A stretch of DNA of 64,000 nt from Patescibacteria group bacterium (GTDB lineage Bacteria; Patescibacteriota; CPR2; UBA1875): contig JAQVJW010000002.1 of the NCBI GenBank assembly GCA_028694925.1, forward strand, positions 9,797 through 73,796. Direction: 5' to 3'. The stretch's first letter is position 1. The number at the start of each line of letters is the position of its first letter. Shown piece after piece: positions 1 through 20,657 of this stretch. Under the pieces are notes generated by a model. It was given only the letters and a program-made list of their open reading frames with translations. It did no database searches and was not told the origin of the DNA. The position numbers were made by a program, and so were the translations under genes.

Positions 1-562
1 TTCAGCGTCAGAGGAGAGATTTGCCACCCCTGAAGCAGCCTATGAAATACAAGAGGACGAATTACCGGTGGAAATTCCAACAACAGCAAAAGGTTCTCAG
101 CCGATATCATCTGCACTCAAAGTCATTGGTGATATTGGTGAGAGATTGGTTTTGAAGTTTGAGCAAGACACAATTGGAAAGGACAGGCCAGATAAGCTTC
201 CTCTGATAAAGATAGTTTCTAATGATACAAGTCTGGGGTATGACATACAATCAATTAGTGATATAGATTTTAGGGAAAAGAAGTTTATTGAAGTTAAAAC
301 CACGAAGCGAACTTATGCTCCGGCGGAGCAGATTGTTACTTTTTTCCCAATGAGCGGGAACGAATGGGAAACTGCAAAATTGCTAAAAGAATGTTATTAT
401 ATTTACAGAGTATTTCTGACTTCAAAGGGTGTTAATATCTGTGTAATCAAAAATCCGGCGGAAAAGCACGATAAGGGATTAATAATACTCGAACCACTAG
501 ACTATAGGGTAATTTTAAAGGAAGCAGCAATTGATAGAATGCATGAATTAGAGGGGGTTTAG
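1..562 (+). CDS. DUF3883-domain protein, C-terminal fragment; the gene continues upstream of the window
   Basis: The frame is open from position 2 with no upstream stop, and the first start in the ORF track is GTG at 68. The sequence matches the DUF3883 pattern (GYDIxS..IEVKTT...NEWE.A....YYIYRV) seen in defence-island helicase/ATPase fusions. Confidence 0.55.
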   Translation, partial: SASEERFATPEAAYEIQEDELPVEIPTTAKGSQPISSALKVIGDIGERLVLKFEQDTIGKDRPDKLPLIKIVSNDTSLGYDIQSISDIDFREKKFIEVKTTKRTYAPAEQIVTFFPMSGNEWETAKLLKECYYIYRVFLTSKGVNICVIKNPAEKHDKGLIILEPLDYRVILKEAAIDRMHELEGV

Positions 563-565
563 CTA

Positions 566-1528
566 ATGAAGGTTGCATCACTGTTTTGTGGTTGTGGCGG
601 GTCTGATTTGGGACTAGAAGGAGGGTTTGAGTATATTGGCAAAAAATATTCACGCCTACCTTTCAAAGTTGTCTATGCTTTAGACAACGATGTAAAAGCC
701 GTGGCCACCTACAATATTAACTTCAAATTACCAGCTACCTTAGCTTCGATAAAAGACATCGATCCCAGTAGCATTCCCGATCACGATGTACTGGTCGGTG
801 GGTTTCCATGCCAGTCATTTAGTACCGTTAATCCAAATAAGAATCCTTTTGATGAAAGAGCGGGGTTGTATAAGGATATGGCTAAAATATTAAAAATTAA
901 GCAACCTAAAGCTTTTATTGCAGAAAATGTGAAGGGAATGATGACTCTTCACAAAGGTAAGATTTTTGAAAATGTGACCAAAGAGTTTGAAAAACAAGGC
1001 TATAAACTAAACCACTTATTGATTAATGCTGCAGACTTTGGTATTCCACAAAAAAGGCCACGAGTCTTTATTGTTGGTATCCGTAAGGATTTGGGGTTCC
1101 AATATCAATTTCCCCAAAACCCTGTCGATAAGGATAACTGGGTGGGGCTAAGGGCCGTAATCGACAGTCTAGTACCAAGCGACCCAAGGTATTACTTTTC
1201 GGAAAAAGCCGTTATTGGTATGAGAAATGCAAAAAATAACATGAAGAGGGGACTTGCTCAGGATTTAGAGTCCCCATGCCTTACTGTGACTTCGCATCTT
1301 GCCAAGGTAAGTCTTAACTCAAGGGACCCTGTTTTACTGGTTGACCCTAAAAAAGATTTATACCGGAGATTTACTCCACTTGAAGCGGCAAGAATACAAT
1401 CATTTCCTGACGATTTCAAATTTGTTGGCTCGGAAGCTGATGCTTACAGACAAATTGGTAACGCAATACCGCCGGTCGTGATGTGGCACATTGCTAAAGC
1501 ATTAAGCAAACAGCTCACTAATTCTTAG
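566..1528 (+). CDS. dcm: DNA (cytosine-5)-methyltransferase
   Basis: C5-MTase motifs are present: FCGCGG (motif I), GFPCQ (IV), ENV (VI), QKRPR (VIII) and GNAIPP (X). The start lies 3 nt after the upstream gene's stop. Confidence 0.9.
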   Translation: MKVASLFCGCGGSDLGLEGGFEYIGKKYSRLPFKVVYALDNDVKAVATYNINFKLPATLASIKDIDPSSIPDHDVLVGGFPCQSFSTVNPNKNPFDERAGLYKDMAKILKIKQPKAFIAENVKGMMTLHKGKIFENVTKEFEKQGYKLNHLLINAADFGIPQKRPRVFIVGIRKDLGFQYQFPQNPVDKDNWVGLRAVIDSLVPSDPRYYFSEKAVIGMRNAKNNMKRGLAQDLESPCLTVTSHLAKVSLNSRDPVLLVDPKKDLYRRFTPLEAARIQSFPDDFKFVGSEADAYRQIGNAIPPVVMWHIAKALSKQLTNS

Positions 1529-1644
1529 TTGTCTTGGAGGTGTGTGCACACTTCAAAAAATTGTGACCGGACAACAGGTTCAATATTTAACTTTTAACTT
1601 ATGATTTATCTTTCTCCAAGGCTGATTCATTCTTTGGCTTCATC

Positions 1645-2520
1645 GTGTTATACTTGAATTTAAAGGAGCTTGCTTTGCAAGAGTTTAAATATAAATTTAC
1701 TGAACTATTCAACCCATTGCTGGAGGCGATGCGATCTCTGGGTGGATCAGCAAAGATCAGAGAAATCGAAGATCGTGTTGCCGAAGTTATGTCCTTGTCA
1801 GAAGATGAAATTAGCGACATTCATAGAGGTAATACCACGAAGTTTAGCTATCGATTAGCTTGGGCCAGAACCTATTTGAAACAATTTGGTCTAATGGATA
1901 ACACTTTTTCTGGGGTGTGGATTCTTACTGCTAAAGGAAGAAGAATTAGTAAGGTAGATCCAACAGAGGTAATTAAGGTTAACAGAACTTTCAGTAAGAA
2001 AAACCCAGTTCATCAAAGCGAAATGAATGAAGAGGTTGAGGAAGCGTTTGATTGGCAGGATGAGCTTTTAACTAAGATTAAAACACTCAGCCCCGCTGAT
2101 TTTGAAATTCTTTGTCAGAGGATCCTAAGAGAATCAGGCTTTGAAGAAGTTGTAGTAACAGGTGGCACAGGTGACGGAGGCATCGATGGTATGGGCATTT
2201 TTAAGATGGGTGGTCTTATTGGTTTCCGGGTATATTTTCAATCTAAGAGATACACGGAAAACAGTGTTCCGAGCAAGGATATCACTAGATTTAAGGGAAC
2301 AATGGTGGGCAGAGCTGATAAGGGGTTGTTTATAACTACTAGTAAATTCACAAAATCTGCTAAAGAAGAGGCCAATCGGGATGGGTCTCCGCCAATTGAT
2401 CTCGTTGATGGACGAGATCTGGTTAATATAATGAAAAAACTTGGCATGGGAGTTGAGGTAGTGAATGAGGAAAAGATAAACCTTAACGATGATTGGTTTA
2501 AGAGCAATTTCGATAATTAA
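1645..2520 (+). CDS. mrr: Mrr-family restriction endonuclease (Mrr_N winged helix plus Mrr_cat PD-(D/E)xK)
   Basis: N-terminal Mrr_N-like region (FSYRLAWARTYLKQFGLMD) and an Mrr_cat core (GGTGDGGIDG...QSKRY). Confidence 0.8.
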   Translation: MLYLNLKELALQEFKYKFTELFNPLLEAMRSLGGSAKIREIEDRVAEVMSLSEDEISDIHRGNTTKFSYRLAWARTYLKQFGLMDNTFSGVWILTAKGRRISKVDPTEVIKVNRTFSKKNPVHQSEMNEEVEEAFDWQDELLTKIKTLSPADFEILCQRILRESGFEEVVVTGGTGDGGIDGMGIFKMGGLIGFRVYFQSKRYTENSVPSKDITRFKGTMVGRADKGLFITTSKFTKSAKEEANRDGSPPIDLVDGRDLVNIMKKLGMGVEVVNEEKINLNDDWFKSNFDN

Positions 2521-2743
2521 GGTTGCAACTTGCGTTAGAACTTTTTTGTAATAAATAATGTGGTATTTACCTATATGCTACAACAGAAACATAACAATTT
2601 AGTCTTTATCAAGAGAACGAAGGTAGTATAATAGTAACAAACGGAGGTATAGGAGGAATTTATTACTTCTTAAAGGGGTAGAAGGGGACCCATTATAGTG
2701 CTCCATAGTAAGGAGGAAAGACCTTTTATATAAGGTGAAAAAT

Positions 2744-2872
2744 ATGAGTGGAACAAGAGGGAATGGCTTAAAGGCCGCTGAAACAAACAAGAAAAGAAAG
2801 GGAGCCAATTTCTACGGAGAGATTGGCCTCAAGGGCAGACTTAAAATGGGAGTGAAAAAGGATTATGAGTAA
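2744..2872 (+). CDS. Small KGG-repeat-like stress protein (YciG/Con-6-like), 42 aa
   Basis: Translates to MSGTRGNGLKAAETNKKRKGANFYGEIGLKGRLK. It is a paralog of 3340..3531 with long identical DNA stretches. At under 60 aa it is absent from the ORF track. An AGGAGG lies upstream. Confidence 0.45.
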   Translation: MSGTRGNGLKAAETNKKRKGANFYGEIGLKGRLKMGVKKDYE

Positions 2873-3167
2873 TTTTATGATAAAAAATATCAGAAAATTA
2901 TTGGGTTTATCGATTAGGTTCATCGGATTGATATATATGTTCTGGATATTAGTGGTTAAATTTCCTCTGTTCTTTGTAGCATTTTATGATTTTAATTTTT
3001 ATGAGGATGTTCTTTCCACATGGGGAGCCGGGTTCATGATTAAATTAGTAATAACTTTACTTTTTTTTGTGCCTGCGATTTTACTATATAAGATTGGAAA
3101 TTTAGTCGAAGGACGCGACTGGGATTATTGGTTCGATGATATAATTAAGAGATTTAGCAAGGAGTAA
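2865..3167 (+). CDS. Hypothetical small membrane protein
   Basis: 100-aa ORF with two or three hydrophobic helices and no recognisable domain. Confidence 0.35.
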   Translation: MSNFMIKNIRKLLGLSIRFIGLIYMFWILVVKFPLFFVAFYDFNFYEDVLSTWGAGFMIKLVITLLFFVPAILLYKIGNLVEGRDWDYWFDDIIKRFSKE

Positions 3168-3171
3168 ATAT

Positions 3172-3336
3172 ATGACTGTATTGGCAATTTTCTTAGCAAT
3201 CCTTCTGGTGATACTGTTTATAATTTATACAACTGAGACTGAAGAAAAAGATGAGGAAATTGAAATTTTAGAAAACAGAATAACTAGTTTAGAGGGTGAC
3301 ATTGTTAAACTTAAGAAAAAATTTGGAAGAAGGTAA
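3172..3336 (+). CDS. Hypothetical mini-protein with a TM anchor and coiled coil (54 aa)
   Basis: Translates to MTVLAIFLAILLVILFIIYTTETEEKDEEIEILENRITSLEGDIVKLKKKFGRR. It was found by manual translation and is not in the ORF track. Confidence 0.3.
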   Translation: MTVLAIFLAILLVILFIIYTTETEEKDEEIEILENRITSLEGDIVKLKKKFGRR

Positions 3337-3339
3337 AAA

Positions 3340-3531
3340 ATGAGCGGAACTAAAAGGGGCGGTATTAAAGCTGCTGAAACAAACAAGAAAAGACATGGAG
3401 CCAATTTTTACAAAGAGATTGGTGCCAAGGGTGGATTGAAAACTGGTGTGAAAAAAGGATTTGCGGCTAACACCAATCTTGCCCGTCTAGCGGGTCAAAA
3501 AGGTGGAAGGATTTCAAAAAGAAAAGCTTGA
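3340..3531 (+). CDS. Small KGG-repeat stress-induced protein (two KGG motifs)
   Basis: GANFYKEIGAKGG and LAGQKGG fit the KGG stress-protein repeat. It is a duplicated paralog of 2744..2872. Confidence 0.55.
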   Translation: MSGTKRGGIKAAETNKKRHGANFYKEIGAKGGLKTGVKKGFAANTNLARLAGQKGGRISKRKA

Positions 3532-3562
3532 ATATCTATCAAATAATTTAAAGGTATAACAA

Positions 3563-6229
3563 ATGACAAAAGGACTTTTATTCAAAAAGTTTGTCCTACA
3601 CTTACACACTCCCGGATCAAGTGATTGGAAGGGTGGGAATAAAGCGGCTGAGGATATAGTAAAAAAAGCAATCGAGAAAGAGCTGGCTGCTATAGCAGTC
3701 ACTGATCATAACTCAGGTGATTTTGTCGATGAAATGAAAAAAGCTGCTGAGAAAACTAGTTTAGTGGTATTCCCTGGGGCTGAAATTGTTGCCACGGGCG
3801 GTAAGAAAGGCATACACTTAATTGTCATATTTGACGTCGATAAAAACTCCGCTCATGTAAAAGCTTTTTTAAATACAATTGGGATATATAAAAAAACTGC
3901 TGCCGCAGATAAAACAGTTAATGAGATAGCCCGTAAGCTAGAAGAGTTTGACCCTTCTGCAATTATCATTCTTGCCCACTGCCATTCTAGTAAAGGAGTA
4001 TCTGGCGATATGCAAGGGGAGGTTAGGGCTAACATTTTTAACCAGAAGAATGATTGTATTTTAGCTGCTGAGGCGGCTAGAAGCGACTTTGAAGCTACCG
4101 AGAAAATAGAAAAGCATACAAGAGTCATTGATCTACTCGATGGAAGTAATCCGAACTTCGGGAAGAAAAAGTTAGCCGTTATACAGGCTGCGGATTCTCA
4201 TGATCTGGACTCTGTGGGTGACAAATTTACTTATTTGAAAGTAGATGAAGTAATAACAATTGAAGATTTAAGGCAGGCCTTTATAGATAGGGAGACAAGA
4301 GTGAGGCAACCTTGGGAATATACAGAGAGTCAGTTTCCTAAAATATTGAGGGTAAAAGTTAAGAGCGGATTCCTGGATGGAGAGGAAGTTGAGTTTAATG
4401 ACGGTCTAAACAGTATTATAGGTTCAAAAGGATCTGGTAAATCATTACTAGTTGAATTACTAAGGTTTGCACTTAGCCAGGAATCACACATTAAGGCTGT
4501 TTCAGAGGATCACTTTTCTAAATTAGAGAATTGTTTAAAGTTACATGGGGTAGTAACCGTGACATTTTCAGACAAAACCGGGCATCTGTATGAATTGGAA
4601 AGGACGTATGCACCCTCAAGTGAAAGCCCGACCAGAATAACTGATTTAGAGGACGGGTCAATTAAAAGTTTTGATGTAGAGACCCTCTTCCCTATTTTAT
4701 TCCTAAGCCAAAATGAGGCTATTAGAATCGCAGAGGAGAATGGGGGTGAGAACCAAAGGAGATTTATAGATAGATTCTTCGATTTTCATAAATATCAGTC
4801 GGAGATTAAAAGGCTAAACAAAAGACTAGCTGAAATTGATACTCGCTTCGCTGATGCAATAGAATCAAAGTTTAAGTTAGGAGTTGTTCAAAAAGAGCTT
4901 GCTACATTAGAAGAAGAGGTTGCGAAACTAGATAGGCAAATGAAAAAAGATATATTCGCGGAGTATTCAGAAAAGGAGAAGATTAATATTAGCATCCGGA
5001 GTAAGTTAGATTTTTTCGACTCGTTAGAGTCGGGCCTTGAGTCAATAATAATTGATTACAGGGATATTCAAGAAAATAGTACAGCAACAGATGGGCCAGA
5101 CGATCCAATAATAAAAAGGTCAAACGAGATACTCCAGGGCACAACGAATAGTATAGTTGAGGGCTTATCGGGAATAAAAGATTTGATTGGGGCTGAAAAG
5201 AAAAAATTTAAAGCAGAGGTAGACGATTGGGATAAAAAGTTTAAGTCAATTAAAAATAGTTATCACGACGCTGTTCTAGAGGCCGGAGGTAGTCAGGTTG
5301 TCTTAAACGAACAAAGAGAAGGGGTATTGGCACGTATAAAAGAAAGGAAAAAAGAAGAGGCGTTTCTTAAGAGTAAAACCGTTTTATTGAATTCATTGGC
5401 TGATGAGCGGAAGAGTCTATTACGGGGGCTAGAAGAAACAAGAAAGGCTTATTACGATCAAAGAAAAGAGAGGTGTAAATATTTATCCGAAAAATCTTCT
5501 GGTTTGGTAAAGGTTTCGATTAAGGAGATGGAAGATAAGTCAGTATTTAAACAAAAATTACTTGCATTAAAAAAAGGTTCTTGGATTTCGGACAAGGATA
5601 TGGAAATTATGGCAGAGAAAATTAAGCCCAAAGACCTTGTTAGCTCTCTGATCAACTATGCGAATGGAACCAGAGAAAAAAGTGTTAAAAAAGTAATCTT
5701 AGCAACTGATATTGATGAAAAAACGGTTGAAAAATTATTTGACTTTTTAACAGGGAGTTTAGATGTTAGGGAGATCCTGGCTTTAATGTATGACTCTGTT
5801 CCGGAAGACGTTCCGGTTATTAAATATAAAGTGGGGACGGGGGAATACAGAGAATTAAAGGATCTTTCAACTGGGCAAAAGGCTTCTGCCTTACTGATAG
5901 TCGCTCTGACTGATGGTGACTTCCCAATTATTATCGATCAACCAGAGGATTCGCTGGATCTCGTTTCAATTTGGAATGATGTATGTGAAAACATTAGGAA
6001 AACTAAAGAGAAAAGGCAATTTATTTTTACTACACATAATTCTTCAGTCGCGGTGGCCTCTGACTCCGATAATTATATAATTTTAGAAGCTGATGCTACA
6101 ACCTGTAGAGTTGTTGTATCTGGGTCAAATAATTCTACTGAAGTTAACGATAAAATCGTAAGCTACCTTGAGGGAGGAAAGCCTACCTACGCCCTCAAGA
6201 GGAGAAAATATATCAATAAAAGAAAATAA
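3563..6229 (+). CDS. PHP-domain phosphoesterase fused to an SMC/RecF/SbcC-like ABC ATPase with a long coiled-coil insert (Ppl-like defence protein architecture)
   Basis: PHP motifs are HLHTPGSSD, AVTDHNS, AHCHSSKG and AADSHDLD. The Walker A is GSKGSGKSLL. A coiled coil of about 350 aa follows. The ABC signature is STGQKASALL, the Walker B/D-loop is IIIDQPEDSLD and the H-loop is FTTHNS. Confidence 0.75.
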   Translation: MTKGLLFKKFVLHLHTPGSSDWKGGNKAAEDIVKKAIEKELAAIAVTDHNSGDFVDEMKKAAEKTSLVVFPGAEIVATGGKKGIHLIVIFDVDKNSAHVKAFLNTIGIYKKTAAADKTVNEIARKLEEFDPSAIIILAHCHSSKGVSGDMQGEVRANIFNQKNDCILAAEAARSDFEATEKIEKHTRVIDLLDGSNPNFGKKKLAVIQAADSHDLDSVGDKFTYLKVDEVITIEDLRQAFIDRETRVRQPWEYTESQFPKILRVKVKSGFLDGEEVEFNDGLNSIIGSKGSGKSLLVELLRFALSQESHIKAVSEDHFSKLENCLKLHGVVTVTFSDKTGHLYELERTYAPSSESPTRITDLEDGSIKSFDVETLFPILFLSQNEAIRIAEENGGENQRRFIDRFFDFHKYQSEIKRLNKRLAEIDTRFADAIESKFKLGVVQKELATLEEEVAKLDRQMKKDIFAEYSEKEKINISIRSKLDFFDSLESGLESIIIDYRDIQENSTATDGPDDPIIKRSNEILQGTTNSIVEGLSGIKDLIGAEKKKFKAEVDDWDKKFKSIKNSYHDAVLEAGGSQVVLNEQREGVLARIKERKKEEAFLKSKTVLLNSLADERKSLLRGLEETRKAYYDQRKERCKYLSEKSSGLVKVSIKEMEDKSVFKQKLLALKKGSWISDKDMEIMAEKIKPKDLVSSLINYANGTREKSVKKVILATDIDEKTVEKLFDFLTGSLDVREILALMYDSVPEDVPVIKYKVGTGEYRELKDLSTGQKASALLIVALTDGDFPIIIDQPEDSLDLVSIWNDVCENIRKTKEKRQFIFTTHNSSVAVASDSDNYIILEADATTCRVVVSGSNNSTEVNDKIVSYLEGGKPTYALKRRKYINKRK

Positions 6230-6233
6230 GGTG

Positions 6234-7040
6234 ATGAATGTAGAAAAGGGACCACTCGAGCAATCATATGAACTCGCCAATCTTGCTACTTTTGATGCGA
6301 CTGCTTTTGTGGGAGACGAGTCAGCATCTCAAGAGCTTTGTGACTTTATTTTGACGTTGGCAGTTATGTGCAATGAGCTGAAAGATTTGTCGAACATTAA
6401 AAAAGAAATTATAACAACCAGTCCAGTTAAGATAGACTCCCAATTGATTACTCCTCAAAAGGGTAATCTGGGGGGTTATTTGGCATTTATTTTGAGATTA
6501 TATATCTTGAAAGTTTATGAAATGTCGGAATTATTTCGTTCAAGTCTAGTTCTAATAGAATCAAGTCAATTTGAGGTTTATCTTAAAAAAATTAGCAAAA
6601 AACAAAGAGAAATGTGGGACTCTTCAGTAGCAATGCTTACCAATAATAAGGCCGACGGTAAGTTTAATAAGGTATTAACAGTCGTGAGACACAAGACAGC
6701 CGGACATTGCGAGGCCAAAGAAATAGCTAAGGGATATCGTTTTTATTTTATAGATAGAAAAGGTATGGAGCCTTACATTTCGTTTGGTGATGGTATACCG
6801 TCAACCAGGTTTCATTTTGCAGATGCGGCAATGGAAGGCTACCTACTTAAGAAACACAAAGATCTTTCGGCGGGGTATATTGAAAAGGAAATGGATGAGC
6901 TAATTAGCTATCTGTACAATTCGGTCTGGTTGTTAGTAGGTAAGTTTGTTAATTCCAGGAGTTCTTGGAAAAAACCGACCGAAGACAAATTGCCTGAGCC
7001 AGAGGGTTTTGGGGTTAAGGGTTTAAGGTCAAAGTTATAA
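6234..7040 (+). CDS. Hypothetical protein, tightly coupled partner of the PHP-ATPase
   Basis: The ATG lies 4 nt after the upstream stop. It encodes 268 aa with no recognisable motif. The ORF track entry 6168..7040 includes an upstream overlap. Confidence 0.5.
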   Translation: MNVEKGPLEQSYELANLATFDATAFVGDESASQELCDFILTLAVMCNELKDLSNIKKEIITTSPVKIDSQLITPQKGNLGGYLAFILRLYILKVYEMSELFRSSLVLIESSQFEVYLKKISKKQREMWDSSVAMLTNNKADGKFNKVLTVVRHKTAGHCEAKEIAKGYRFYFIDRKGMEPYISFGDGIPSTRFHFADAAMEGYLLKKHKDLSAGYIEKEMDELISYLYNSVWLLVGKFVNSRSSWKKPTEDKLPEPEGFGVKGLRSKL

Positions 7041-7296
7041 AGTCGTTCCTATATTTTCGCCAAATGGAACACATATCAAATAGACCATTTTATCGGCCTA
7101 TTTCTAATAATGACACAGGAAACTACCATGCTGAGGTAAAAGTTTCTTATTGTTATTATGTACTGTGAGGATTTTTCCTTAAAATTAAAAGATATGCAGA
7201 AGATCGCTCCACCTCAGCATATGTTTACAAAGTAAACCTATTTACCTCCCTAAAAAACGTGAATATGTAGCAAAATTGTTATAGATTCACGTTATA

Positions 7297-7325
7297 TTGA
7301 CAAATAATCGTGAATTATATATAAT
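7297..7325 (+). promoter_or_regulatory. Consensus sigma70-type promoter (TTGACA-17-TATAAT) for a near-leaderless Fic transcript
   Basis: TTGACA at 7297-7302, a 17-nt spacer and TATAAT at 7320-7325. The Fic ATG at 7338 is only about 6 nt past the predicted TSS. Confidence 0.5.
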
Positions 7326-7337
7326 AAATATAGTATT

Positions 7338-8228
7338 ATGGCAATTTCTAAAAATATTAGAAAAAATCTAAACAATCTTAAACGAGAGTATGATTCCTTA
7401 AAGAAGGGCAAAGAATCTCTTTTGGATATGCTATTTGAGGTAGAAATTCCAGAGTCAGTCTATAACTCTAACGCTATTGAAAACTCAACCCTAACCATCA
7501 AAGAAACAGAAAAGATATTAATGGAGATGGAGGTTTCTAGGGATGTCTCTGTACGTGAAGTCTTTGAAGCAAAAAACTTGGCAAAAGTCTTTGAATTTAT
7601 TAAGGCCCAATCCCAAAAAGATAATTTGGATAAAGAGTTTATTTTACTAATCCATAAAATGTTAATTGATAATATTAATGGAAATATTGCTGGAAGATTT
7701 AGAAAACCCGGTGAATATGTCCGAGTTGGTACTCATATTGCCCCAGCACCAGAACAGGTACCAGACCTTATAGAGTCAGCTCTGTTGGAATATTCTAGTA
7801 ATTTAAACTCCTATTTTCTGGAAAAAATTCCCAAGTTTCACCTAGAGTTCGAAGATATACATCCTTTCTGCGACGGCAATGGGCGTATTGGCAGAGTAAT
7901 CCTTAACTATCAACTAATGGATCTTGGATTTCCGCCTATTATTATAAGGGATAAAGAAAAAGCTGATTATTACCAATCATTCAGGGAATACAATATTAAG
8001 AATAAAACTGACCAAATGGAAAGGGTTTGCTATCTAGCGCTTCTAGAGTCTTTTCATAAAAGAATTACCTATTTAAAGGGTCAAAAAATCATTACATTGG
8101 CAGATTATGCTAAAAGAAATAAGGAGCCACTTAATGCCCTTTCTAATCGAGCTAAAAGACAAACGATACCTGCCTTTAGGGAAAAAGGCATCTGGAAGAT
8201 TGGTAAGGAGTATAAGAAATATCTCTAA
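7338..8228 (+). CDS. Fic/DOC family protein, class II (N-terminal inhibitory SxxxEN motif)
   Basis: Canonical Fic motif HPFCDGNGRIGR, with an upstream inhibitory-helix motif SNAIEN. Confidence 0.85.
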   Translation: MAISKNIRKNLNNLKREYDSLKKGKESLLDMLFEVEIPESVYNSNAIENSTLTIKETEKILMEMEVSRDVSVREVFEAKNLAKVFEFIKAQSQKDNLDKEFILLIHKMLIDNINGNIAGRFRKPGEYVRVGTHIAPAPEQVPDLIESALLEYSSNLNSYFLEKIPKFHLEFEDIHPFCDGNGRIGRVILNYQLMDLGFPPIIIRDKEKADYYQSFREYNIKNKTDQMERVCYLALLESFHKRITYLKGQKIITLADYAKRNKEPLNALSNRAKRQTIPAFREKGIWKIGKEYKKYL

Positions 8229-8315
8229 TGAGTGCTAGTATGTTTAGTTTAGGTGACATATAGGATTATTGCAGAACCTTCATTATCAGCGCTATAATGT
8301 ATAAAAGGAGGGAAA

Positions 8316-8738
8316 ATGAAAATATATTCAATTATTGTTACAATTGTAGCTGTTATCGCTATTTTAGCGGCTGGTTTTCTGGGCTATCAGTACCAAGACC
8401 TTCAAAAACAAAAAAAGGCCGTCGAAGATGATATGAATGAAGTCCAACAAGAATTAGAGGGAGCCCGATTGAGCGTCACTAATCTGGAGACAACGGTTGT
8501 GGCTCTTGAATCTACGGTGGGCTCATTTCAGCCTGTTGGCGACACGACAATTGGCTCGTTTATACCCGTAAGGGCAACTGAATCACGTCAAAAAATAGAA
8601 GAGATAACAGACGAAAAAGATAGAGAGATAGTACTAGAAGGATGGGATCTTTTTTACGAATCAAGACGCTTGAATGATTTTCAGCATCTATTAGAAAAAT
8701 TTACCGAGACTCTCGGTAGAAGCCTAGATAATATCTAG
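8316..8738 (+). CDS. Hypothetical membrane-anchored coiled-coil protein
   Basis: N-terminal TM helix, a heptad-like region and an AGGAGGG RBS. A candidate promoter (TTGCAG-18-TATAAT) lies at 8269-8298. Confidence 0.4.
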   Translation: MKIYSIIVTIVAVIAILAAGFLGYQYQDLQKQKKAVEDDMNEVQQELEGARLSVTNLETTVVALESTVGSFQPVGDTTIGSFIPVRATESRQKIEEITDEKDREIVLEGWDLFYESRRLNDFQHLLEKFTETLGRSLDNI

Positions 8739-8750
8739 CCTCATATATAG

Positions 8751-9560
8751 TTAATCGGTTATTTCGAATTTAAATTGAAATAATTGTTCGTTTTCCTGAG
8801 TGCCAACCAGGATATATCTTCCACTTTCTAGCGTGACCGGCTCACAATCAATGTTATAGCCTGCTCTTAGAACTTGGTCGCTTGTTCTTTTTAATATCTC
8901 TTTTGTCCCTAGGTTTTGTATGGTGACACCATAATTATAGAGTTGCTCTTTTGCGTCAGTAAGAAGACAAAACTTATCTCTCCTTCTGCTAAATGAGCTT
9001 GTCTCTTCTGGTGAATCCCTGTCGACATCGCCAGTAAGTGGAATTTTGGCAATTGCGACCCTTGTAAATAGGTCCTGTTTTTTATCATTTTCCTTTGTGA
9101 CATATTTTGTTTCTGAGGTATCTACTTGATATATTCCATAAATATCTGATAGTAGTACAGGATTTATTTTTAAATAATCTCTTTCGTTAGAGATTTTGTA
9201 AACATTATCTATGCCATTATTTATAATTTCGCGGATAATCCCTAACCTGATGGTTCCACCATCGTTATAGTTAACGACTACCCCACTTTTTATTTCTTCT
9301 GGTGCAAAGCACTTATCGAAGCTATAGGTTTTGCCTTGGGTCAAGAAGGGTGCCATTGAGTCGCCACTTACCTTAACATTAAAGTTACATAAATAATCAA
9401 TATTATCGAGGATTGGGAGTTTTAAGTTTGGCCTTTCTTTATAAAAATAAAGGGCGGCTGCCAATAATATGATAAAGATGATAACAGCGGTATAGATTCG
9501 GGAAGATTTTTTCTTGGTTTTCATTATATTTAGTTTAGGCTGTTTCGATAAATATATCAA
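8751..9560 (-). CDS. Membrane-anchored S24/S26 (signal-peptidase-like) serine peptidase-domain protein
   Basis: N-terminal TM helix, then VSGDSMAPFL (a GDSM nucleophile motif) and RLGIIREI. The true start may be the internal Met at about 9524 (MKTKKK). Confidence 0.5.
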   Translation of the reverse strand: MIYLSKQPKLNIMKTKKKSSRIYTAVIIFIILLAAALYFYKERPNLKLPILDNIDYLCNFNVKVSGDSMAPFLTQGKTYSFDKCFAPEEIKSGVVVNYNDGGTIRLGIIREIINNGIDNVYKISNERDYLKINPVLLSDIYGIYQVDTSETKYVTKENDKKQDLFTRVAIAKIPLTGDVDRDSPEETSSFSRRRDKFCLLTDAKEQLYNYGVTIQNLGTKEILKRTSDQVLRAGYNIDCEPVTLESGRYILVGTQENEQLFQFKFEITD

Positions 9561-9614
9561 AATTAATCATGATTTGAATCCTCGCTCTATTGTAATAATT
9601 CGTTGTGATATAAT

Positions 9615-10409
9615 TTGATTATGGTATTAAAGGACAATAAATTCTTAGTTACCGGCGCGGCTAGTGGTATCGGTAAGGCCCTAGTCCTGGCCCTCATTGA
9701 ACAAGGGGCCAGTGTGGTGGCCCTAGACTTAAATCAAGAGGCTCTTCTTGCGCTCGAAAAAGAAACAGATAAAAAGAAACTTAAGACCAAAGTTCTTGAT
9801 ATAACAGATAAGAAGGCAACGACTGAAATTGCAACCGAATATATGGATATCGATGGAATTATAAACAACGCTGGAATAATCCAACCCTTTTTAAGGGTCG
9901 GGGAGCTAGATTATAAAGCGATCGAGAGGGTAATGCAGGTTAACTTCTATGGTACTTTGTATCTTACCAAGGCTTTTTTACCCCACCTTCTTAAAAGGCC
10001 TGAGGGCTATATTATAAATGTGTCGAGTATGGGCGGTTTTCTTCCGGTGCCAGGGCAGGGGATCTATGGAGCTTCAAAGGCGGCTGTCAAACTTTTTACG
10101 GAGGCCTTGTATGCTGAGCTTCGAGATACTAATGTTCATGTTTCGATCGTCTTTCCGGGAGCCACAAACACGAACATTACTAAAAATTCGAACGTTACCG
10201 CACCCAAAGATACTACGGCGACTAATTATAGCCTAACTTCACCAGAAGAGGCAGCCAGAAAAATCATCCGAGGTATTTTGAAGAATAAATCAAGGATATT
10301 CACTGGTAAAGATTCGCGATCGATGGACTTCCTTTATAGGATATCACCTACTTTTGCCACAAATCTTATTGCGCGAAAGATGAAATCCTTGCTCGGAGGG
10401 ATAGAATGA
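9615..10409 (+). CDS. Short-chain dehydrogenase/reductase (SDR)
   Basis: TGAASGIGKAL glycine-rich NAD(P)-binding motif and the YGASKAAV catalytic YxxxK. Confidence 0.85.
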   Translation: MIMVLKDNKFLVTGAASGIGKALVLALIEQGASVVALDLNQEALLALEKETDKKKLKTKVLDITDKKATTEIATEYMDIDGIINNAGIIQPFLRVGELDYKAIERVMQVNFYGTLYLTKAFLPHLLKRPEGYIINVSSMGGFLPVPGQGIYGASKAAVKLFTEALYAELRDTNVHVSIVFPGATNTNITKNSNVTAPKDTTATNYSLTSPEEAARKIIRGILKNKSRIFTGKDSRSMDFLYRISPTFATNLIARKMKSLLGGIE

Positions 10410-10633
10410 AAGAACAAACAAAGAAATCTCAAATAACCGCTATAGCTTTTGATATTCTTGAGTCACATCCCGAAGGTGTGCATTGGGTGGATCTAAATAA
10501 GATGATTTTAGGGGCAGATTCTAAGTTACACCCCAAAACAGTTAATGGGGTTGTTTGGAAGCTCTCCCAAGAGTACCCTAATAAGGTTTATAAGCCTGAA
10601 AAAGGGGTTTTTCGCTTATTAAAATTCAGGTAA
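10406..10633 (+). CDS. Small winged-helix-like protein (Mrr_N-like fold?), hypothetical
   Basis: 75 aa, overlaps the SDR stop by 4 nt. Ends KGVFRLL, which resembles Mrr_N/wHTH termini. Weak. Confidence 0.3.
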   Translation: MKEQTKKSQITAIAFDILESHPEGVHWVDLNKMILGADSKLHPKTVNGVVWKLSQEYPNKVYKPEKGVFRLLKFR

Positions 10634-10652
10634 CATAAGGACTGGAGATAAG

Positions 10653-11225
10653 ATGCCAAAGAATGCCGAAATAACCAAAAAAGCTCGCGAATCACTTTCA
10701 GGTAGATGGTGGTTTGCGGTTGGAGTACTGCTACTTTATTACCTTATAACAGGAGGAATCGCCAATATTCCGATGGCAACCCTTATTGTTGGTGGCCCCT
10801 TTGTCTTAGGCCTTACAACTTTCTCTCTTTCCTTTGTTCGGAAGGAGAAGAAGAATGAACTTGCACAATTATTCGAAGGTTTTAAGAATTTTGAGAATTC
10901 CTTAGTAGCTTATCTTTTGGTTCTTGTCTTTACTCTTCTTTGGATGCTTCTTTTTATAATCCCAGGTATTATCGCTAGTATCTCCTATTCCCAGACTTTT
11001 TATATCCTAGCCGATGAGAAGCTAACCGGTAAAGAGGCGATTGAAAAGAGCAAAAAGATGATGATGGGCTATAAGTGGAAGTACTTTTGTCTTAATTTAA
11101 GATTTTTTGGTTGGACCTTACTCTCACTTCTTTCGCTTGGGATTGGATTTATTTTCCTTATCCCCTATATTCAAATGAGCCAGGCTATTTTTTACGAAGA
11201 ACTAAAAGCGAACTATAAAGCATAA
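10653..11225 (+). CDS. Integral membrane protein, DUF975-like
   Basis: Multi-TM protein whose N-terminal motif SLSGRWWFAVGVLL is typical of the DUF975 family. Confidence 0.45.
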   Translation: MPKNAEITKKARESLSGRWWFAVGVLLLYYLITGGIANIPMATLIVGGPFVLGLTTFSLSFVRKEKKNELAQLFEGFKNFENSLVAYLLVLVFTLLWMLLFIIPGIIASISYSQTFYILADEKLTGKEAIEKSKKMMMGYKWKYFCLNLRFFGWTLLSLLSLGIGFIFLIPYIQMSQAIFYEELKANYKA

Positions 11226-11275
11226 TTGTATATTATGCCAATGATTATTCATTAGTACTTTTATAATATCTAAGT

Positions 11276-11698
11276 ATGAGGAATTGGGTTAGGAAATATT
11301 ATTTAATATTTAAGTGGCACAGGACAAAAAAGCGCCATCCGGTATTTGATCCTAAATACGCCCAAGAGAACCTACTTTCTCTTTTTGGCTTTTTATTTAT
11401 GACCCTTCTCTATCTTGTCTCAACCATTCTCTTTTTACATCTCTTGGTACTAGGTGGGGTAGTAGAGACTGAAACTATCCTTTGGCTTATGATTGAATCG
11501 GGAACTAGAATAATCCTAGTAGGATTCCCCGAACAAATGATAGCGGGCACCCTCTTTTCTGGACTCTCCTTTACTTCAAGCTTAATCCTTATCTTCTTTG
11601 CTCGTCTTATAATTGGACTATATCAAGCGAAGCTCCATCCGGAGTCAGAAAAAGAGATTGCCAATTTTATTACCTCAAAGAGACAGATTAAGATATAA
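11276..11698 (+). CDS. Hypothetical membrane protein
   Basis: Hydrophobic 140-aa ORF with no motif. Confidence 0.3.
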   Translation: MRNWVRKYYLIFKWHRTKKRHPVFDPKYAQENLLSLFGFLFMTLLYLVSTILFLHLLVLGGVVETETILWLMIESGTRIILVGFPEQMIAGTLFSGLSFTSSLILIFFARLIIGLYQAKLHPESEKEIANFITSKRQIKI

Positions 11699-11714
11699 TA
11701 GAAATCAGGAAAAT

Positions 11715-12062
11715 ATGAAATTACTTGCAAGTCTTATTTTAAAAACAGCGGCTGTCCTACTTACGGCCTGGCTTCTTCCGGGGGTAGAGCTTGACGGGTT
11801 AATACCGGCTATTTGGCTTGTTATTGTCCTTGTCCCGATCGACTATATCGTAAGACCAGTCTTACATATCTTGTCACTCCCGATTAGTATCATAACCTTT
11901 GGTATCTTTGCCCTTTTCATAAATGGAGCCATGATTCTGTTGGCCTCGGTATTTGTACCTAATTTCTCAGTTGATGGTTTGCTTCCGGCGATTCTCTTTA
12001 GCCTTATCCTTGGTTTTGTAACGACAATCCTACAAAGGATATTCTTACCCGAAAAAGAATAA
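11715..12062 (+). CDS. Phage_holin_4_2 / DUF360 family membrane protein
   Basis: Starts MKLLASLILKTAAVLLTAWLLPGVELDG and has four TM segments typical of PF04020. The ORF-track start at 11613 overlaps the upstream gene. The ATG at 11715 has an AGGA RBS. Confidence 0.55.
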   Translation: MKLLASLILKTAAVLLTAWLLPGVELDGLIPAIWLVIVLVPIDYIVRPVLHILSLPISIITFGIFALFINGAMILLASVFVPNFSVDGLLPAILFSLILGFVTTILQRIFLPEKE

Positions 12063-12069
12063 TAACTTT

Positions 12070-12348
12070 CTACATTCCAAGGAACTTCATCAGCTCATAA
12101 ACCAAAAATCCTGGCCAAACGATTGCTTTTAGAATTCCAACTACTACTTCAGTAAAACCATCGGCGGACCCAAGGAAATAGACTAGGGCTCCAATTAGTC
12201 CAAGACCATAGACGGCCCCGGCCCCTGCCTTAGCGCCTTTATCGGCCTTGCAGGATTTGCTCCACTCGCTTATCTTTTGCTCGATTTTCTTTTCGGTCGC
12301 CTCGTCCCATTCAGCGGTAATTTTTGCTTTTTTGGTTTTTTCGGCCAT
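12070..12348 (-). CDS. Hypothetical small protein with a C-terminal TM segment
   Basis: 92-aa ORF with a lysine-rich N-terminus and a hydrophobic C-terminus. Confidence 0.35.
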   Translation of the reverse strand: MAEKTKKAKITAEWDEATEKKIEQKISEWSKSCKADKGAKAGAGAVYGLGLIGALVYFLGSADGFTEVVVGILKAIVWPGFLVYELMKFLGM

Positions 12349-12431
12349 CTTTACCTCCCAATTATTTAACTAATCTCATGATAGCATCTCTTGATATGGC
12401 TTAAAACCTATATATTCTGTATTATTACTAT

Positions 12432-13178
12432 ATGAGCTTTCTTTTAAGTGCAGTTATCGCCACCTTAATCATTAGTATCCTTTCACTTGTTGGAATATTT
12501 ACTTTTGTTTTAGGAGAGAAGAAATTAAATAAGATTGCTTTGTATCTAGTAGCCTTTTCTACTGGGGCTTTAATCGGTGGTGCTTTCTTGCATCTATTGC
12601 CCGAAGCGGCCGAAAATTCTGAGGGTCTTTCGATTTACCTATATCAAATTCTTGGTATTACCCTCTTTTTTATCCTGGAGCGGTTTCTTAAATGGCATCA
12701 TTGCCACGAAGAAGGGGAATGTGAGGTCCACACCTTTACCTACATGAGTATTGTTGGAGACTCTTTCCATAACTTTATTGATGGCCTGGTGATTGTCTCT
12801 GCCTTTGCGGTCGCTCCTGAACTTGGGATTGCAACTACAATTGCAGTGGCCGCCCATGAGATACCCCAAGAGCTTGGGGACTTCGGAGTCCTAATTCATG
12901 GTGGTTACTCGCGGGCTAAGGCCCTTCTATGGAACTTTGCTTCAGCCTTAACGGCTGTAGCCGGTACCATAGTGGGCTATTTTCTTTTAAATCTGAACGA
13001 AACACTTTCCTTATTCTTGCTTCCTTTCGCGGCTGGTGGTTTTATCTATATCGCGATGAGCGATTTAGTCCCCGAGCTTCATAAAGAGCCTAGAATTTCT
13101 AAGTCGGTTCTTAACTTTCTTCTCTTTCTTTTGGGGATACTTGTAATGTATGGTCTTAAAATATATTTTGAAGGGTAA
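12432..13178 (+). CDS. zupT: ZIP family zinc/iron permease (ZupT-like)
   Basis: His-rich loop (HHCHEEGECEVH) and the HEIPQELGDFGVL ZIP signature, with eight TM segments. Confidence 0.8.
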   Translation: MSFLLSAVIATLIISILSLVGIFTFVLGEKKLNKIALYLVAFSTGALIGGAFLHLLPEAAENSEGLSIYLYQILGITLFFILERFLKWHHCHEEGECEVHTFTYMSIVGDSFHNFIDGLVIVSAFAVAPELGIATTIAVAAHEIPQELGDFGVLIHGGYSRAKALLWNFASALTAVAGTIVGYFLLNLNETLSLFLLPFAAGGFIYIAMSDLVPELHKEPRISKSVLNFLLFLLGILVMYGLKIYFEG

Positions 13179-13224
13179 AAAAGAGCCGCGGTAGCGACTC
13201 CTTTTTATCTTTTTGTTTTATCCT

Positions 13225-13776
13225 CTAATTACTTTGGCAAGTACTTGCCCCATTGCCATTTCCACCATTTCTTTGTCCGAACCCTTCACGAACGGGGAGA
13301 ATGCTTGTATCAATTCCTTCATCTTCTAGGTATGCTCGTAGGCCATCCGTTCGTCCTTTTACCTTTCCTCTGTTTTGATACATTGGTTCTCGAGTAGCTT
13401 TTATCTCCTCGTGCCTTTCGAGGATAGCATCGTATTGCTCCTTTGTGATCTTTCCGTCTGCTAGAGCGGTATCTAGGCTAGTCGTAAGGGCCGTCTCTCT
13501 TTCGGCCTGGTGTTCTGCCCGCACTTCAGCAAGATAGGTCCCAACCTCATCTTGATTTAGATTAAATTTTTCCGTAAGGTCGCTCACTATTGGAGGAAGG
13601 GTCTCCGATGTTGTATCGGCAGCATTCGCGTAGCTTACAGCCGTTGCGCCAAGTCCTAAGGCAAGCCCAAGGGCTACGAGTGATATTTTTTGTGTCTTTG
13701 TCATCTTATTCCTCTTTGGATTATTTTTTACTTTCGCCGGCAGTAATAATACGCATGGGAAGAAAAAATATTTCAA
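13225..13776 (-). CDS. Secreted hypothetical protein
   Basis: Signal peptide (MTKTQKISLVALGLALGLGATAVSYANA), then a Gly/Asn-rich tail. It lies immediately downstream of the sigma/anti-sigma pair. Confidence 0.35.
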   Translation of the reverse strand: MKYFFFPCVLLLPAKVKNNPKRNKMTKTQKISLVALGLALGLGATAVSYANAADTTSETLPPIVSDLTEKFNLNQDEVGTYLAEVRAEHQAERETALTTSLDTALADGKITKEQYDAILERHEEIKATREPMYQNRGKVKGRTDGLRAYLEDEGIDTSILPVREGFGQRNGGNGNGASTCQSN

Positions 13777-14291
13777 ATATCATCGATGTCGTTTTCATAG
13801 ATCGGGTGCATAAGTCTTTTGCCTTGTCCGTTTCGGGGGCCTCTTGGGACGAAATTTTCGTCATTCCACTGATAGAATTGTCTGAAACCTGGTCTTTTTT
13901 CAAACTGCTCGTTAAGGTTTAGCCTTGAAAGCCCCATTCCAAGGAGAAGAACGAAGAAGAAAACAATGAGGGCCGTAATTCCGATATGTTTCTTGTAACC
14001 ACCTTCGTAATTGCGATAAAGATAGAGAAGAACTGCGACTACTATAGAGCCAATAATAAGGAGAGGCCAAGGGAAGAGCGAGAGGTAGCTTAGGTTCCCG
14101 TTCTCGGCCATCCTAAGAGCTCGTTCTGGGAGGTAGAACATAAGGTTAAAGATGTAGATAGCAAGGATAAGAATCACAAAAGATGCACTATAGATGGCTG
14201 CTCTTAGGAAAGCAAAGTATGACTTTGGTTTTGGTTTAATGTCATTCTTTCTTATTCTATTTAAGGTTTCCTTTTTTATATCTTTTTTCAT
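13773..14291 (-). CDS. Putative membrane anti-sigma factor
   Basis: Overlaps the ECF sigma gene stop by 4 nt. Multi-TM with no conserved motif, so the call rests on context only. Confidence 0.4.
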   Translation of the reverse strand: MKKDIKKETLNRIRKNDIKPKPKSYFAFLRAAIYSASFVILILAIYIFNLMFYLPERALRMAENGNLSYLSLFPWPLLIIGSIVVAVLLYLYRNYEGGYKKHIGITALIVFFFVLLLGMGLSRLNLNEQFEKRPGFRQFYQWNDENFVPRGPRNGQGKRLMHPIYENDIDDI

Positions 14292-14869
14292 AAGTAGTCC
14301 TCTGGATTAATATTTATATTACTCTTTAATTTCGCAAGCCCCCTTCTGATTCTGACCCCGACGGTACTTATGGGTATTTTTAGGATGTCACTGATCTCTT
14401 CATAGCTCTTCTCTTCAAAAAAACGCAAGATGACGATTTCTTTGTATTTAAGTGGCAGGGTTTCAATCTCTTTCTCGAGTACCTTTTTGACCTCTTTCTT
14501 TCCGAGTTCTGCTTCGATTTTCTCTCTCCCTTCTGAACTTGCAATTTCCGGGGCATCATCGATACTAACTTTATTTTTTCCTTTTCTGATTTCATTTATC
14601 GCCTTGTTGTGGGCAATCCGGTAGATCCAAGAAGAAAATTTCCTTTTTGGATCAAAACCGTTAATATTCTCATAAGCGGCAATAAAGGTCTCCTGTAAGA
14701 CATCTTCAGAAAGATCTTCATCTTTTAGGATGCGAGTAATATACCCTAGTAATTTTTTCTCGTATCTATCAATAACTTCGGAGAAGCCATCTCCAAAGTT
14801 GTTTTGGATATATAATATGAGCTCCTCATCAGAGTATTTGTGGTAATCCATGCATCTATAATACAACAA
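14288..14869 (-). CDS. RNA polymerase ECF-type sigma-70 factor
   Basis: Sigma70 region 2 (DVLQETFIAAYENINGFDP...WIYRIAHNKAIN) and region 4 HTH (SYEEISDILKIPISTVGVRIRRG). Confidence 0.85.
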   Translation of the reverse strand: MLYYRCMDYHKYSDEELILYIQNNFGDGFSEVIDRYEKKLLGYITRILKDEDLSEDVLQETFIAAYENINGFDPKRKFSSWIYRIAHNKAINEIRKGKNKVSIDDAPEIASSEGREKIEAELGKKEVKKVLEKEIETLPLKYKEIVILRFFEEKSYEEISDILKIPISTVGVRIRRGLAKLKSNININPEDYL

Positions 14870-14949
14870 CCAAGGAAATAAATTTCATTTTGGGATGATT
14901 TCAGAGAACCTGAAATCTTTAGCTCTTATCGATTATTTGATATACTGGT

Positions 14950-16278: not shown

Positions 16279-16330
16279 TCACATGGCCTTTATTAATTCG
16301 TGATTTTGTAGTAGAATTACTTTCGCAATA

Positions 16331-16747
16331 ATGAAGTTTAAAAAAATTGAATTAAATATTAAGGCCAGGGTTAATCCAATCCGCACGCGGGCCATCTCCC
16401 ATATTAAAAGTAACTATTTTCGGGATACGGCAACTCAACTTCTTTTGATTCCTTCAATATCATTTATGGTTGTGGCCCTTGTGATGGCGATTTACTTCTT
16501 TCGAATCTCCGAGTATTTAGTGCCCCTTAGGTACAATACATTTCTTGGAGTAATTAGCCTTGGGCATTGGTATGAACTCTATCAATTACCGATATTTTTA
16601 ACTATTTGTTTTATCGTAAATATCCTCTTGGCTAAGGTTATCTATGAGAGGGATAAATTCCTTGCCTACATTATAACGGCATCGAATATCTTTTTGACTC
16701 TAGTTACCCTTGTGACAATTATCAATTTTGGCAGGATAATTAGTTAG
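16331..16747 (+). CDS. Hypothetical membrane protein
   Basis: Four hydrophobic segments, immediately upstream of the GT2 synthase. Confidence 0.3.
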   Translation: MKFKKIELNIKARVNPIRTRAISHIKSNYFRDTATQLLLIPSISFMVVALVMAIYFFRISEYLVPLRYNTFLGVISLGHWYELYQLPIFLTICFIVNILLAKVIYERDKFLAYIITASNIFLTLVTLVTIINFGRIIS

Positions 16748-18394: not shown

Positions 18395-18449
18395 CTTCTT
18401 TTGCTTGACGGCATAATTATTCGGGGCTACTATCTAACTAGGAGTAACT

Positions 18450-18785: not shown

Positions 18786-18854
18786 CTCACCTACTATCAA
18801 AGATTATCCTTTACCTTAGGGGCTTTTTTTGATATACTTTTCTTCGTAACTTCA

Positions 18855-19574: not shown

Positions 19575-19605
19575 AAGAGGACCTACTGGGTCTTCTTTTA
19601 TATTG
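19575..19605 (+). terminator. Rho-independent terminator of rplY
   Basis: A 9-bp stem (AAGAGGACC / GGTCTTCTT, with one G-T pair), a 5-nt loop and a TTTATATT tail. Confidence 0.5.
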
Positions 19606-20128: not shown

Positions 20129-20158
20129 TGCGTCGCGACTACATCCAGGAGGTGCGTT

Positions 20159-20620: not shown

Positions 20621-20657
20621 TTGCCCAGACTGGTAGTTGAGTATAGTGTCTTTTTAC

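Follow-up and report, generated by a model that had tools for sequence, protein, structure and literature searches.

A tRNA-end, hairpin and promoter module heading GC-rich orphan cassettes in Patescibacteria, a candidate decayed att-type junction

The locus and its two copies of a shared element

The window analyzed here, 64 kb out of the 75-kb contig of a Patescibacteria group bacterium MAG, carries two diverged copies of an intergenic element, copy A at about 7057-7180 and copy B at about 19613-19735, which a repeat search paired as family D17 and which are in direct orientation on the + strand. Copy A occupies the right end of a restriction/defence cluster and has a Ppl-like PHP-ATPase gene and its 290-aa partner on one side and a Fic gene on the other, and copy B follows the rplY terminator and is succeeded by a segment of 52% GC, the AbiEi/AbiEii genes and a 137-aa ORF. 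These are the contexts given in the original prediction, which placed both copies just 3' of a gene end, one ahead of the Fic gene and the other ahead of a GC-rich insert plus AbiE. The two copies are the sole matches in the window to the 20-base core pattern GCCAAATGGAACNNNNATCAAATA at up to 3 mismatches, with 0 expected from shuffles, and their alignment scores 95 against -5.5 +/- 8.7 for shuffled sequences (maximum 27, n=2000), more than 11 standard deviations above; chance similarity is thereby ruled out, and the predicted 65-nt repeat exists in two copies. Its register was about 7 nt off, as GCCA begins at 7059 in copy A and at 19626 in copy B, and its length was underestimated for both, as homology runs to ~7180 and ~19735. 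Identity between the copies is ~87% from GCCA to TAATGA (~55 nt, counted on the sequence) and 73% (82/112) across the full shared stretch of ~108 nt, and the similarity continues leftward into a tRNA-like remnant and rightward past a -10-like box. An nhmmer search with the family profile recovered copy A at 7058-7173 (E=1e-22) and copy B at 19626-19775 (E=1e-43), and no third copy in the 64 kb. Both regions are reproduced by an independent Logan assembly of run SRR22315504, in which one contig spans the copy B insertion. It is of note that at 7044-7072 one Logan contig of this run ends and another begins; they overlap by 29 nt, and the overlap runs precisely to the last base of the core block (..GCCAAATGGAACAC), which points to a branching assembly graph and perhaps to strains that differ at this junction. 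A coding remnant can be dismissed, since six-frame translations of A and B lose the frame at the indel, and A and B are not attL and attR of a single 12.5-kb island (7059-19626), the interval containing syntenic housekeeping genes common to relatives.

Related modules occur on other contigs (L002, L025, L026 and L027, described below), and the copies have one layout in common: a core (..CGCCA followed by AATGGAAC), a 15-nt trailer, an 11-12 bp hairpin (H1), TTAATGA and CTGCTAAG boxes, and a TGnTAnnAT promoter that faces a GC-rich (52-56%) orphan-gene cassette. Copy A (7057-7180, +), as delimited by the family-profile match and by alignments, is a truncated solo junction module without GC-rich cargo. 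Its core (7057-7072) reads TCGCCA, the last 6 nt of the tRNA-Asp 3' end, and then AATGGAACAC, as identified by a motif scan and by comparison with L002; its H1 (7078-7103; AAATAGACCA tttt at CGGCCTATTT) contains two mismatches that are A.C on the + strand and G.U on the - strand, and its extended -10-like box TGTTATTAT (7151-7159) aligns with the family TGnTAnnAT. Copy B begins with a decayed tRNA-Asp 3'-end fragment, TGCGGTGCGGCTTGCCA (19613-19629, +), which is 11/17 identical to CCCGGTCGGGATCGCCA when read against the tRNA-Asp of L002. The junction module itself was delimited to 19626-19735 (+) by alignments and nhmmer and comprises, all on the + strand, the core GCCAAATGGAACGC from 19626, H1 at 19645-19671, the TTAATGA box at 19675-19681, the CTGCTAAG box at 19697-19704 and the extended -10 TGTTAATAT at 19714-19722. 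It is followed by a cassette 5'-leader hairpin, GGAGGGTCGCACCA / TGGTGTGACCCTCC (19741-19772, +), which is kept in L002, L025 and L026. Each copy had been said to be followed within about 60 nt by a strong inverted repeat; behind copy B this is the leader hairpin, with its 14-nt arms, and behind copy A there is a 10-nt repeat (7129-7138 / 7212-7221, seen by eye only) whose arms lie ~73 nt apart and which is not homologous to the one after B.

Hairpin H1 exists in two sequence variants in which four pairs have changed on both sides, and pairing holds in 89% of cells compared with 18-44% when the partners are slid. This covariation, which reflects two lineages and a single lineage split and counts as roughly one event, suggests that the hairpin is under selection. 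H1 starts 15 nt after CCA and is flanked by A-rich sequence on its 5' side and T-rich sequence on its 3' side, with an interrupted T-tract on the + strand, and the tRNA-Val and tmRNA genes of the window show the same arrangement of gene end/CCA, short trailer and terminator. Because of these A/T-rich flanks, the spacing from CCA and the tRNA-Val/tmRNA layout, the 65 nt originally noticed are most likely a tRNA tail remnant, a trailer and a terminator-type hairpin, which would presumably act in termination. A terminator scan flagged H1 on the - strand only in both window copies, and made no call on the + strand or in L002. The GCCA that opens the predicted element corresponds to the tRNA discriminator base plus CCA, because the element of L002 continues a duplicate of the tRNA-Asp 3' end. 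In the six-sequence alignment, few columns are conserved as well as those of TGnTAnnAT, which are kept in 5/6 family members; the promoter scan called the L002 promoter, TTGATG-17-TAGAAT with an upstream TG, and neither window copy, in both of which there is no good -35. The suggestion that the element could be regulatory is thus partly right, in that a conserved hairpin and a conserved extended -10 promoter are present.

The homology of copy A stops at ~7180, and no cargo follows. The Fic gene (7338-8228) has its own conserved promoter/operator from ~7258 (7258-7337), with CGTGAAT inverted repeats and a perfect TTGACA-17-TATAAT, and this unit is kept in four other genomes, all without the element. 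Given the start of the Fic unit and the absence of the element at these four loci, the element is not part of a Fic cassette, and Fic appears to be a unit separate from copy A. The Fic family has more than 8000 relatives at ~70% identity in Patescibacteria, and in L021 and L022 Fic lies just downstream of a tRNA cluster. On the other side of copy A, the defence cluster, as read from window positions 1-7040 together with positions 1-4722 of L023, which adds 4.7 kb upstream of the window, comprises a BpuJI_N/NOV_C nuclease-like protein, two DNA methylases, a Mrr-like enzyme, the Ppl-like PHP-ATPase and the 290-aa orphan partner; the BpuJI_N/NOV_C protein is a 456-aa gene of L023, of which the window has the C-terminal part (68-559), and small phage-like genes (HTH_31, DUF5659) lie ahead of the cluster, just beyond the edge of the window.

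Copy B heads an insertion of 3,035 bp (19613-22647, +) that consists of the junction module, the GC-rich cassette, AbiEi/AbiEii and ORF137 and is absent from syntenic relatives. In three of these (L016, L017 and L018, whose L25 protein is 69% identical), rplY and its terminator are directly followed by DUF3048 and Nramp genes, so that the rplY-DUF3048 spot presents the empty site, TTAGTGACT, and the segment is missing at the same locus, as expected of an island; in an empty junction the rplY terminator would be joined to TAGTGACTCC. The insert is edged by a TAGTG 5-bp direct repeat (19608-19612 and 22648-22652), and a core-like CCCCCAATGAAC stands at 22636-22647, just before the right-hand TAGTG. 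The flanking TAGTG repeat notwithstanding, the element does not behave as a MITE or insertion sequence, there being two copies only and no terminal inverted repeats flanking the insertion. In L015, which is more closely related and was obtained from the same sample, the rplY-DUF3048 spot is taken up by an ABC-transporter gene, and because a different gene sits there, the site is variable. A D-loop origin of TTGGTTAG at 19604 was rejected, this being native chromosome, as TTAGTGACT stands in the empty site.

The first ORF of the cassette (19796-20128, +) is an orphan of 110 aa from its ATG and is absent from the L002 copy. It is followed by the cargo gene (20159-20527, +), a 122-aa ORF that is frameshifted relative to the other two family members by a 1-nt deletion near 20395, so that its conserved C-terminal end is no longer read in frame; translation in the conserved frame would end at 20478. 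Because mismatches to L002 fall 11/14/35 by codon position, the cargo of copy B is a real gene, and this third-position bias rules out a GC-rich RNA in its place. The protein family has three members among ~15 billion proteins, the ORF has no matches in Pfam, PHROG or PADLOC, and a single-sequence AlphaFold prediction reached a pLDDT of only 57, a quality that did not permit a fold search. An IS200-like transposon, suggested by the size of ~0.7 kb and the small ORF, was rejected, as there is no Y1_Tnp and no other Pfam or PHROG match. The cassette closes with a terminator hairpin (20516-20544, +; GAGGACCGC tgaaa GGCGGTCTTC + ACTTT) that is kept in L002, where the terminator scan calls the equivalent. 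Further downstream, an operator-like palindrome, GAGTATTGCGACA...TGTCGCAAT (20596-20627), lies upstream of AbiEi (20727), and the same palindrome is duplicated at 39300-39359, upstream of an HTH-Fic gene (38249-39292, - strand) located in a second region that is variable relative to L016. As the palindrome precedes both AbiEi and HTH-Fic, two unrelated toxin-type modules have one putative operator in common.

Homologous modules and their tRNA and tmRNA ends

A scan of 185,579 species genomes with a strict exact pattern gave one true match, on a Saccharibacteria MAG contig (L002) that carries the best-preserved related copy; the other four matches are due to chance, with profile E-values of only ~1e-2 to 1e-5 for L003 and L005. 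A scan of JGI metagenomes with a strict pattern returned chance matches only, inside coding sequence. The genome and metagenome scans used one strict pattern each and so will have missed more diverged copies. A phage or plasmid origin was also considered and rejected, since nothing was found in the INPHARED or PLSDB collections, and four pattern scans of IMG/VR viral contigs (for the element, hairpin and leader) together with one cargo protein scan gave no matches.

L002 carries an intact tRNA-Asp (4982-5058), followed by 80 nt with a terminator hairpin and then by an exact 20-nt repeat of the tRNA 3' end, AGCCCGGTCGGGATCGCCAA. This repeat is in direct orientation, 100 nt downstream of the intact tRNA-Asp, and is fused directly to the element, which continues with AATGGAACGCATATC, a perfect 12-bp palindrome, TTAATGA and the promoter already described. 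It begins in the T-loop/T-stem, which is the commonest attP sublocation in Islander (PMC4383910). Upstream of the exact 20-nt part, the L002 fragment is heavily degraded, with a degenerate anticodon-stem-like hairpin. L002 is 90% identical to copy A over ~62 nt (7057-7117) and 78% identical to copy B over 135 nt, the latter homology starting at 19615, within the tRNA fragment. L002 and copy B also have in common the GC-rich gene behind the element (81% nt) and the terminator of that gene, so that their homology begins in the tRNA fragment and lasts to the end of the cargo gene and its terminator, yet they stand at different loci. The tRNA-derived part amounts to only 6 nt in copy A and 11/17 in copy B and is absent from L026, and an intact tRNA-Asp was not found in the 64-kb window.

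The remaining family members were reached by other routes, L025 via the third member of the cargo family and L026 and L027 via a shared leader ORF, MRRGNTGGGIRQTHPSAPPSLP. The element of L025, the fourth that is clearly recognizable, has a hairpin that is again perfect and differs in sequence (AATAAGCTGAC tttt GTCAGCTTATT). L026 and L027 have the same promoter, leader hairpin and leader but unrelated cargo. This leader has 22 codons and a good ribosome-binding site, lies at 5339-5420 in L002, 947-1015 in L026 and 10001-10068 in L027, where it is fused to or ahead of unrelated cargo ORFs. The window copies lack it, and it could serve as an N-terminal peptide common to different proteins, as an upstream ORF with a regulatory role or as a structured leader. 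Throughout the window, L002, L025, L026 and L027, the element has 34% GC, the cassettes 52-56% and the hosts 40-44%.

The L026 cassette lies upstream of an orthologue (72% aa) of the short-chain dehydrogenase gene of the window (9615-10409), which belongs to the neighborhood of copy A. L026 and L002 also have the gene 3' of the cassette in common, encoding a 56-aa membrane protein (93% aa), although their cargo differs. At the right end of the cassette, a core-like block recurs in L002 (CGTCAAGTGGAAT, 11/14) and in L026 (GGCCAAATGGAGCAC, 14/15 identical to copy A); both blocks, like the one in the window, are short and degenerate.

Around the tmRNA gene, L027 and the window show synteny. At 9279-11044, downstream of this gene, L027 contains two GC-rich mini-islands whose borders are marked by the tmRNA 3' end (GCTCCACCA), present three times and followed each time by promoter-like sequence, and the homologous site of the window (62517-62960) is empty. 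The mini-island junction has a degenerate H1 and the same promoter and leader, with the tDNA core after the hairpin and not before it, and because of this order the hairpin may belong to the preceding unit. An intact tDNA accompanied by a displaced 3' fragment, the signature of Islander-type islands, is therefore seen for tRNA-Asp in L002 and for the tmRNA in L027, and the window has fragments only.

Candidate origins of the element

Starting from the observed anatomy, homologues, tRNA duplicate, insertion and decay, we consider it on balance probable that the element is a decayed att-type and expression junction of small, tDNA-associated, integrase-less and non-autonomous GC-rich cassettes. 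This reading is drawn from the tRNA repeat of L002, the tmRNA repeats of L027, the foreign cargo bounded by cores, the clean insertion in the window and the decay. The remnant of the tRNA-Asp 3' end (...GGGATCGCCA) joined to AATGGAAC would represent an att-type core arising from site-specific insertion at a tRNA gene, which would return, as a degenerate direct repeat, at the opposite end of the cassette, and the recombination crossover would fall inside ...GATCGCCAAATGGAAC. The trailer and hairpin, as a second part, would form a terminator that closes the transcript of the tRNA or of the upstream gene and insulates the cassette; the conserved TTAATGA and CTGCTAAG boxes would make up a third part, and the extended -10 promoter would drive the cassette gene through the conserved leader hairpin. 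The insertions would have been made by a tyrosine-type integrase supplied in trans. The cassettes appear to adjoin tRNA and tmRNA genes and a few other variable spots in Patescibacteria and to constitute a rare family. In the window, copy B looks like the head of a frameshifted cassette within a 3-kb insertion and copy A like a truncated solo junction, both decaying, as H1 mismatches occur only in the window copies, the cargo is frameshifted and copy A is without cargo.

Of the three options put forward originally, the att-like site comes closest, in view of the tRNA-Asp 3'-end remnant, the position of copy B at the edge of an insertion and the cores at the right ends of cassettes, but a hot-spot targeted by toxin cassettes is not what we find, Fic being its own unit without the element and AbiE being separated from it by the GC-rich cassette, with which the element is really associated. 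Some results also speak against the att-type junction. The window and L002 have both cassette ends in common, which a simple attP x attB reaction would not move together, and the right-end repeats are, as noted, short and degenerate. Moreover, neither an integrase nor any other recombinase was recovered by Pfam scans of neighboring and integrase-sized ORFs from the window, L002, L023, L026 and L027, and a crude motif scan found no HxLRH box in ORFs of at least 150 aa from the same contigs. The brevity of the tRNA-derived part, the order of hairpin and core in L027, the two lineages behind the covariation, the outcome of the promoter and terminator scans in the window copies and the tiny size of the family count against it as well.

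The shared cassette ends and the lack of an integrase would suit a passive origin, the main alternative, which accepts the same anatomy without a role in recombination and in which the element is the native 3' flank of a tRNA-Asp (a decayed second tRNA tail, trailer and terminator) together with the promoter of the next gene, spread by segmental transfer and at most used as an arm of homology when cassettes are swapped through homologous recombination. We regard this as possible and rather unlikely. The architecture downstream of the tRNA-Val and tmRNA genes of the window is the same, the composition of the element is host-like and AT-rich, the L002 fragment reaches into the degenerate anticodon-stem-like hairpin as a decayed tandem tRNA copy would, and the different cargo of L002 and L026 between the same 5' module and the same 56-aa gene fits an exchange through flanking homology. 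However, passive descent accounts poorly for a 20-nt identity in L002 that is exact while the remaining fragment is heavily degraded, for the clean insertion of the element and cassette of the window, flanked by a 5-bp repeat, at a site other than a tRNA gene, and for the recurrence of core-like blocks at right ends, and the tmRNA-end repeats of L027 show that site-specific tDNA insertion acts on this cassette family.

The inverted repeat of 10-12 bp has also been considered as an operator, bound by a dimeric regulator of the host or of the cassette that would control the adjacent promoter, which we find improbable. The best-preserved copies do contain perfect palindromes (12-3-12 in L002 and 11-4-11 in L025), operator-like palindromes occur in other modules of the window, and half-sites that changed together between variants would also be expected if binding specificity had switched; yet in L002 some 36 nt separate the center of the palindrome from the -35 downstream of it, a distance too great for simple repression, Pfam reveals no DNA-binding domain in any cassette protein, and the UUCG loop of L026 and the A-tract/T-tract flanks fit an RNA terminator better. 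A small RNA, as the original prediction had also allowed, or a cis-acting RNA, possibly from the - strand, is very improbable. It could be argued that each of the three mismatched stem positions of the window copies is A.C when read on the + strand and G.U when read on the - strand, that the - strand is where the terminator scan flags the hairpin in both copies and that the - strand fold of copy B reaches z = -2.2, but we estimate that three transitions would fall this way with a chance of 1 in 8, no conserved - strand promoter is readable in the sequence and, apart from the hairpin, folding is not significant compared with shuffles. Neither copy matches Rfam 15 at gathering or E-value thresholds, the best hit being a leu/phe leader with 21 bits versus a gathering score of 70, so that a known RNA family can be set aside. 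Outside the hairpin nothing pairs, and the oriented signals (tRNA end, -10 box, leader hairpin and gene) are all on the + strand and lead into the downstream gene.

Relation to described systems

The element, on the favored reading a decayed att-type junction, can be compared with known systems. Like a tRNA 3' trailer with an intrinsic terminator, it presents CCA, a short trailer and a hairpin with T-rich sequence, as at the tRNA-Val and tmRNA genes of the window, but no functional tRNA precedes the element and the T-tract is interrupted. Integron attC sites are built from R''/L''...L'/R' inverted core motifs (RYYYAAC/GTTRRRY) and have IntI nearby. The cassettes described here resemble integron cassettes in being small and variable in content, with a recurring junction, palindromic in part, that keeps its structure as its sequence changes; they differ in that no RYYYAAC/GTTRRRY core motifs were read in five copies and no IntI/attI was seen, and in that they have their own promoter and a tRNA-derived core. 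It is a doubtful proposition, and in our opinion quite unlikely, that Patescibacteria have an undescribed, integrase-less exchange of cassettes of small GC-rich orphan genes, each with a promoter and leader of its own, at tRNA-Asp, tmRNA and a few other sites, with the conserved junction of tRNA-derived core and structured hairpin recognized by a recombinase encoded elsewhere, in a manner functionally analogous and unrelated to attC.

In the tDNA island model, an island restores the gene that it splits, and the regenerated gene and the displaced fragment mark its ends (PMC4383910; Williams 2002 as cited there). The intact tRNA-Asp of L002 with its exact 20-nt 3' repeat, the tmRNA 3' ends that delimit GC-rich DNA in L027 and the clean insertion in the window agree with such Islander-type islands (PMC4383910), which differ from the present case in that here there is no integrase, the units are ~0.6-1.1 kb, the window has a decayed fragment without tRNA-Asp, and one insertion is at a non-tDNA site. 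Repeated integration and decay are known to lead to partial tRNAs and to integrase-less elements in tandem (PMC5704250; bioRxiv 10.1101/2020.12.28.424599). For example, CIMEs, which derive from ICEs or IMEs in Firmicutes, keep attL and attR and have lost the genes for integration and transfer (PMC5704250). The cassettes are similar to CIMEs in having no integrase, att-like bounding repeats (here short and degenerate), a tandem arrangement beside the target gene (L027, L002) and signs of decay (PMC5704250), but no ICE/IME parent, relaxase or conjugation context was seen here. In the tycheposon model, repeated integrations at tRNA genes push older elements inward in Prochlorococcus islands and leave partial tRNAs behind (bioRxiv 10.1101/2020.12.28.424599). 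Partial tRNAs and cargo remnants in streamlined genomes are common to both; tycheposons, on the other hand, have tyrosine recombinases and replication modules, none of which were found here, and a hairpin-plus-promoter junction is not described for them.

Islets associated with tDNA are known, and the cassettes reported here are unusually small and integrase-less, with a conserved hairpin-promoter junction, in a phylum for which few descriptions of such elements exist; the element is neither a new RNA class nor a demonstrated new mechanism. If the att-type reading is true, insertion targeted to tRNA and tmRNA genes would shape even the tiny, streamlined genomes of Patescibacteria, where mobile elements are poorly charted, and the element would mark a very rare family of GC-rich orphan cassettes. 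A five-sequence model (A, B, L002, L025 and L026) provides a handle for finding further junctions and the missing recombinase. The direct weight of the element for the host is small, as the window copies look like decaying relics.

Two other regions of the window are of interest in their own right. A giant ORF of 2581 aa with ~150-nt tandem repeats (28085-29126) occupies 27540-35282, in a region that is absent from the syntenic L016, and an AAA_14/DUF4143 ATPase gene (57577-58695) directly follows tRNA-Pro and may be another tRNA-adjacent accessory gene, a member of the same family following Fic in L021.
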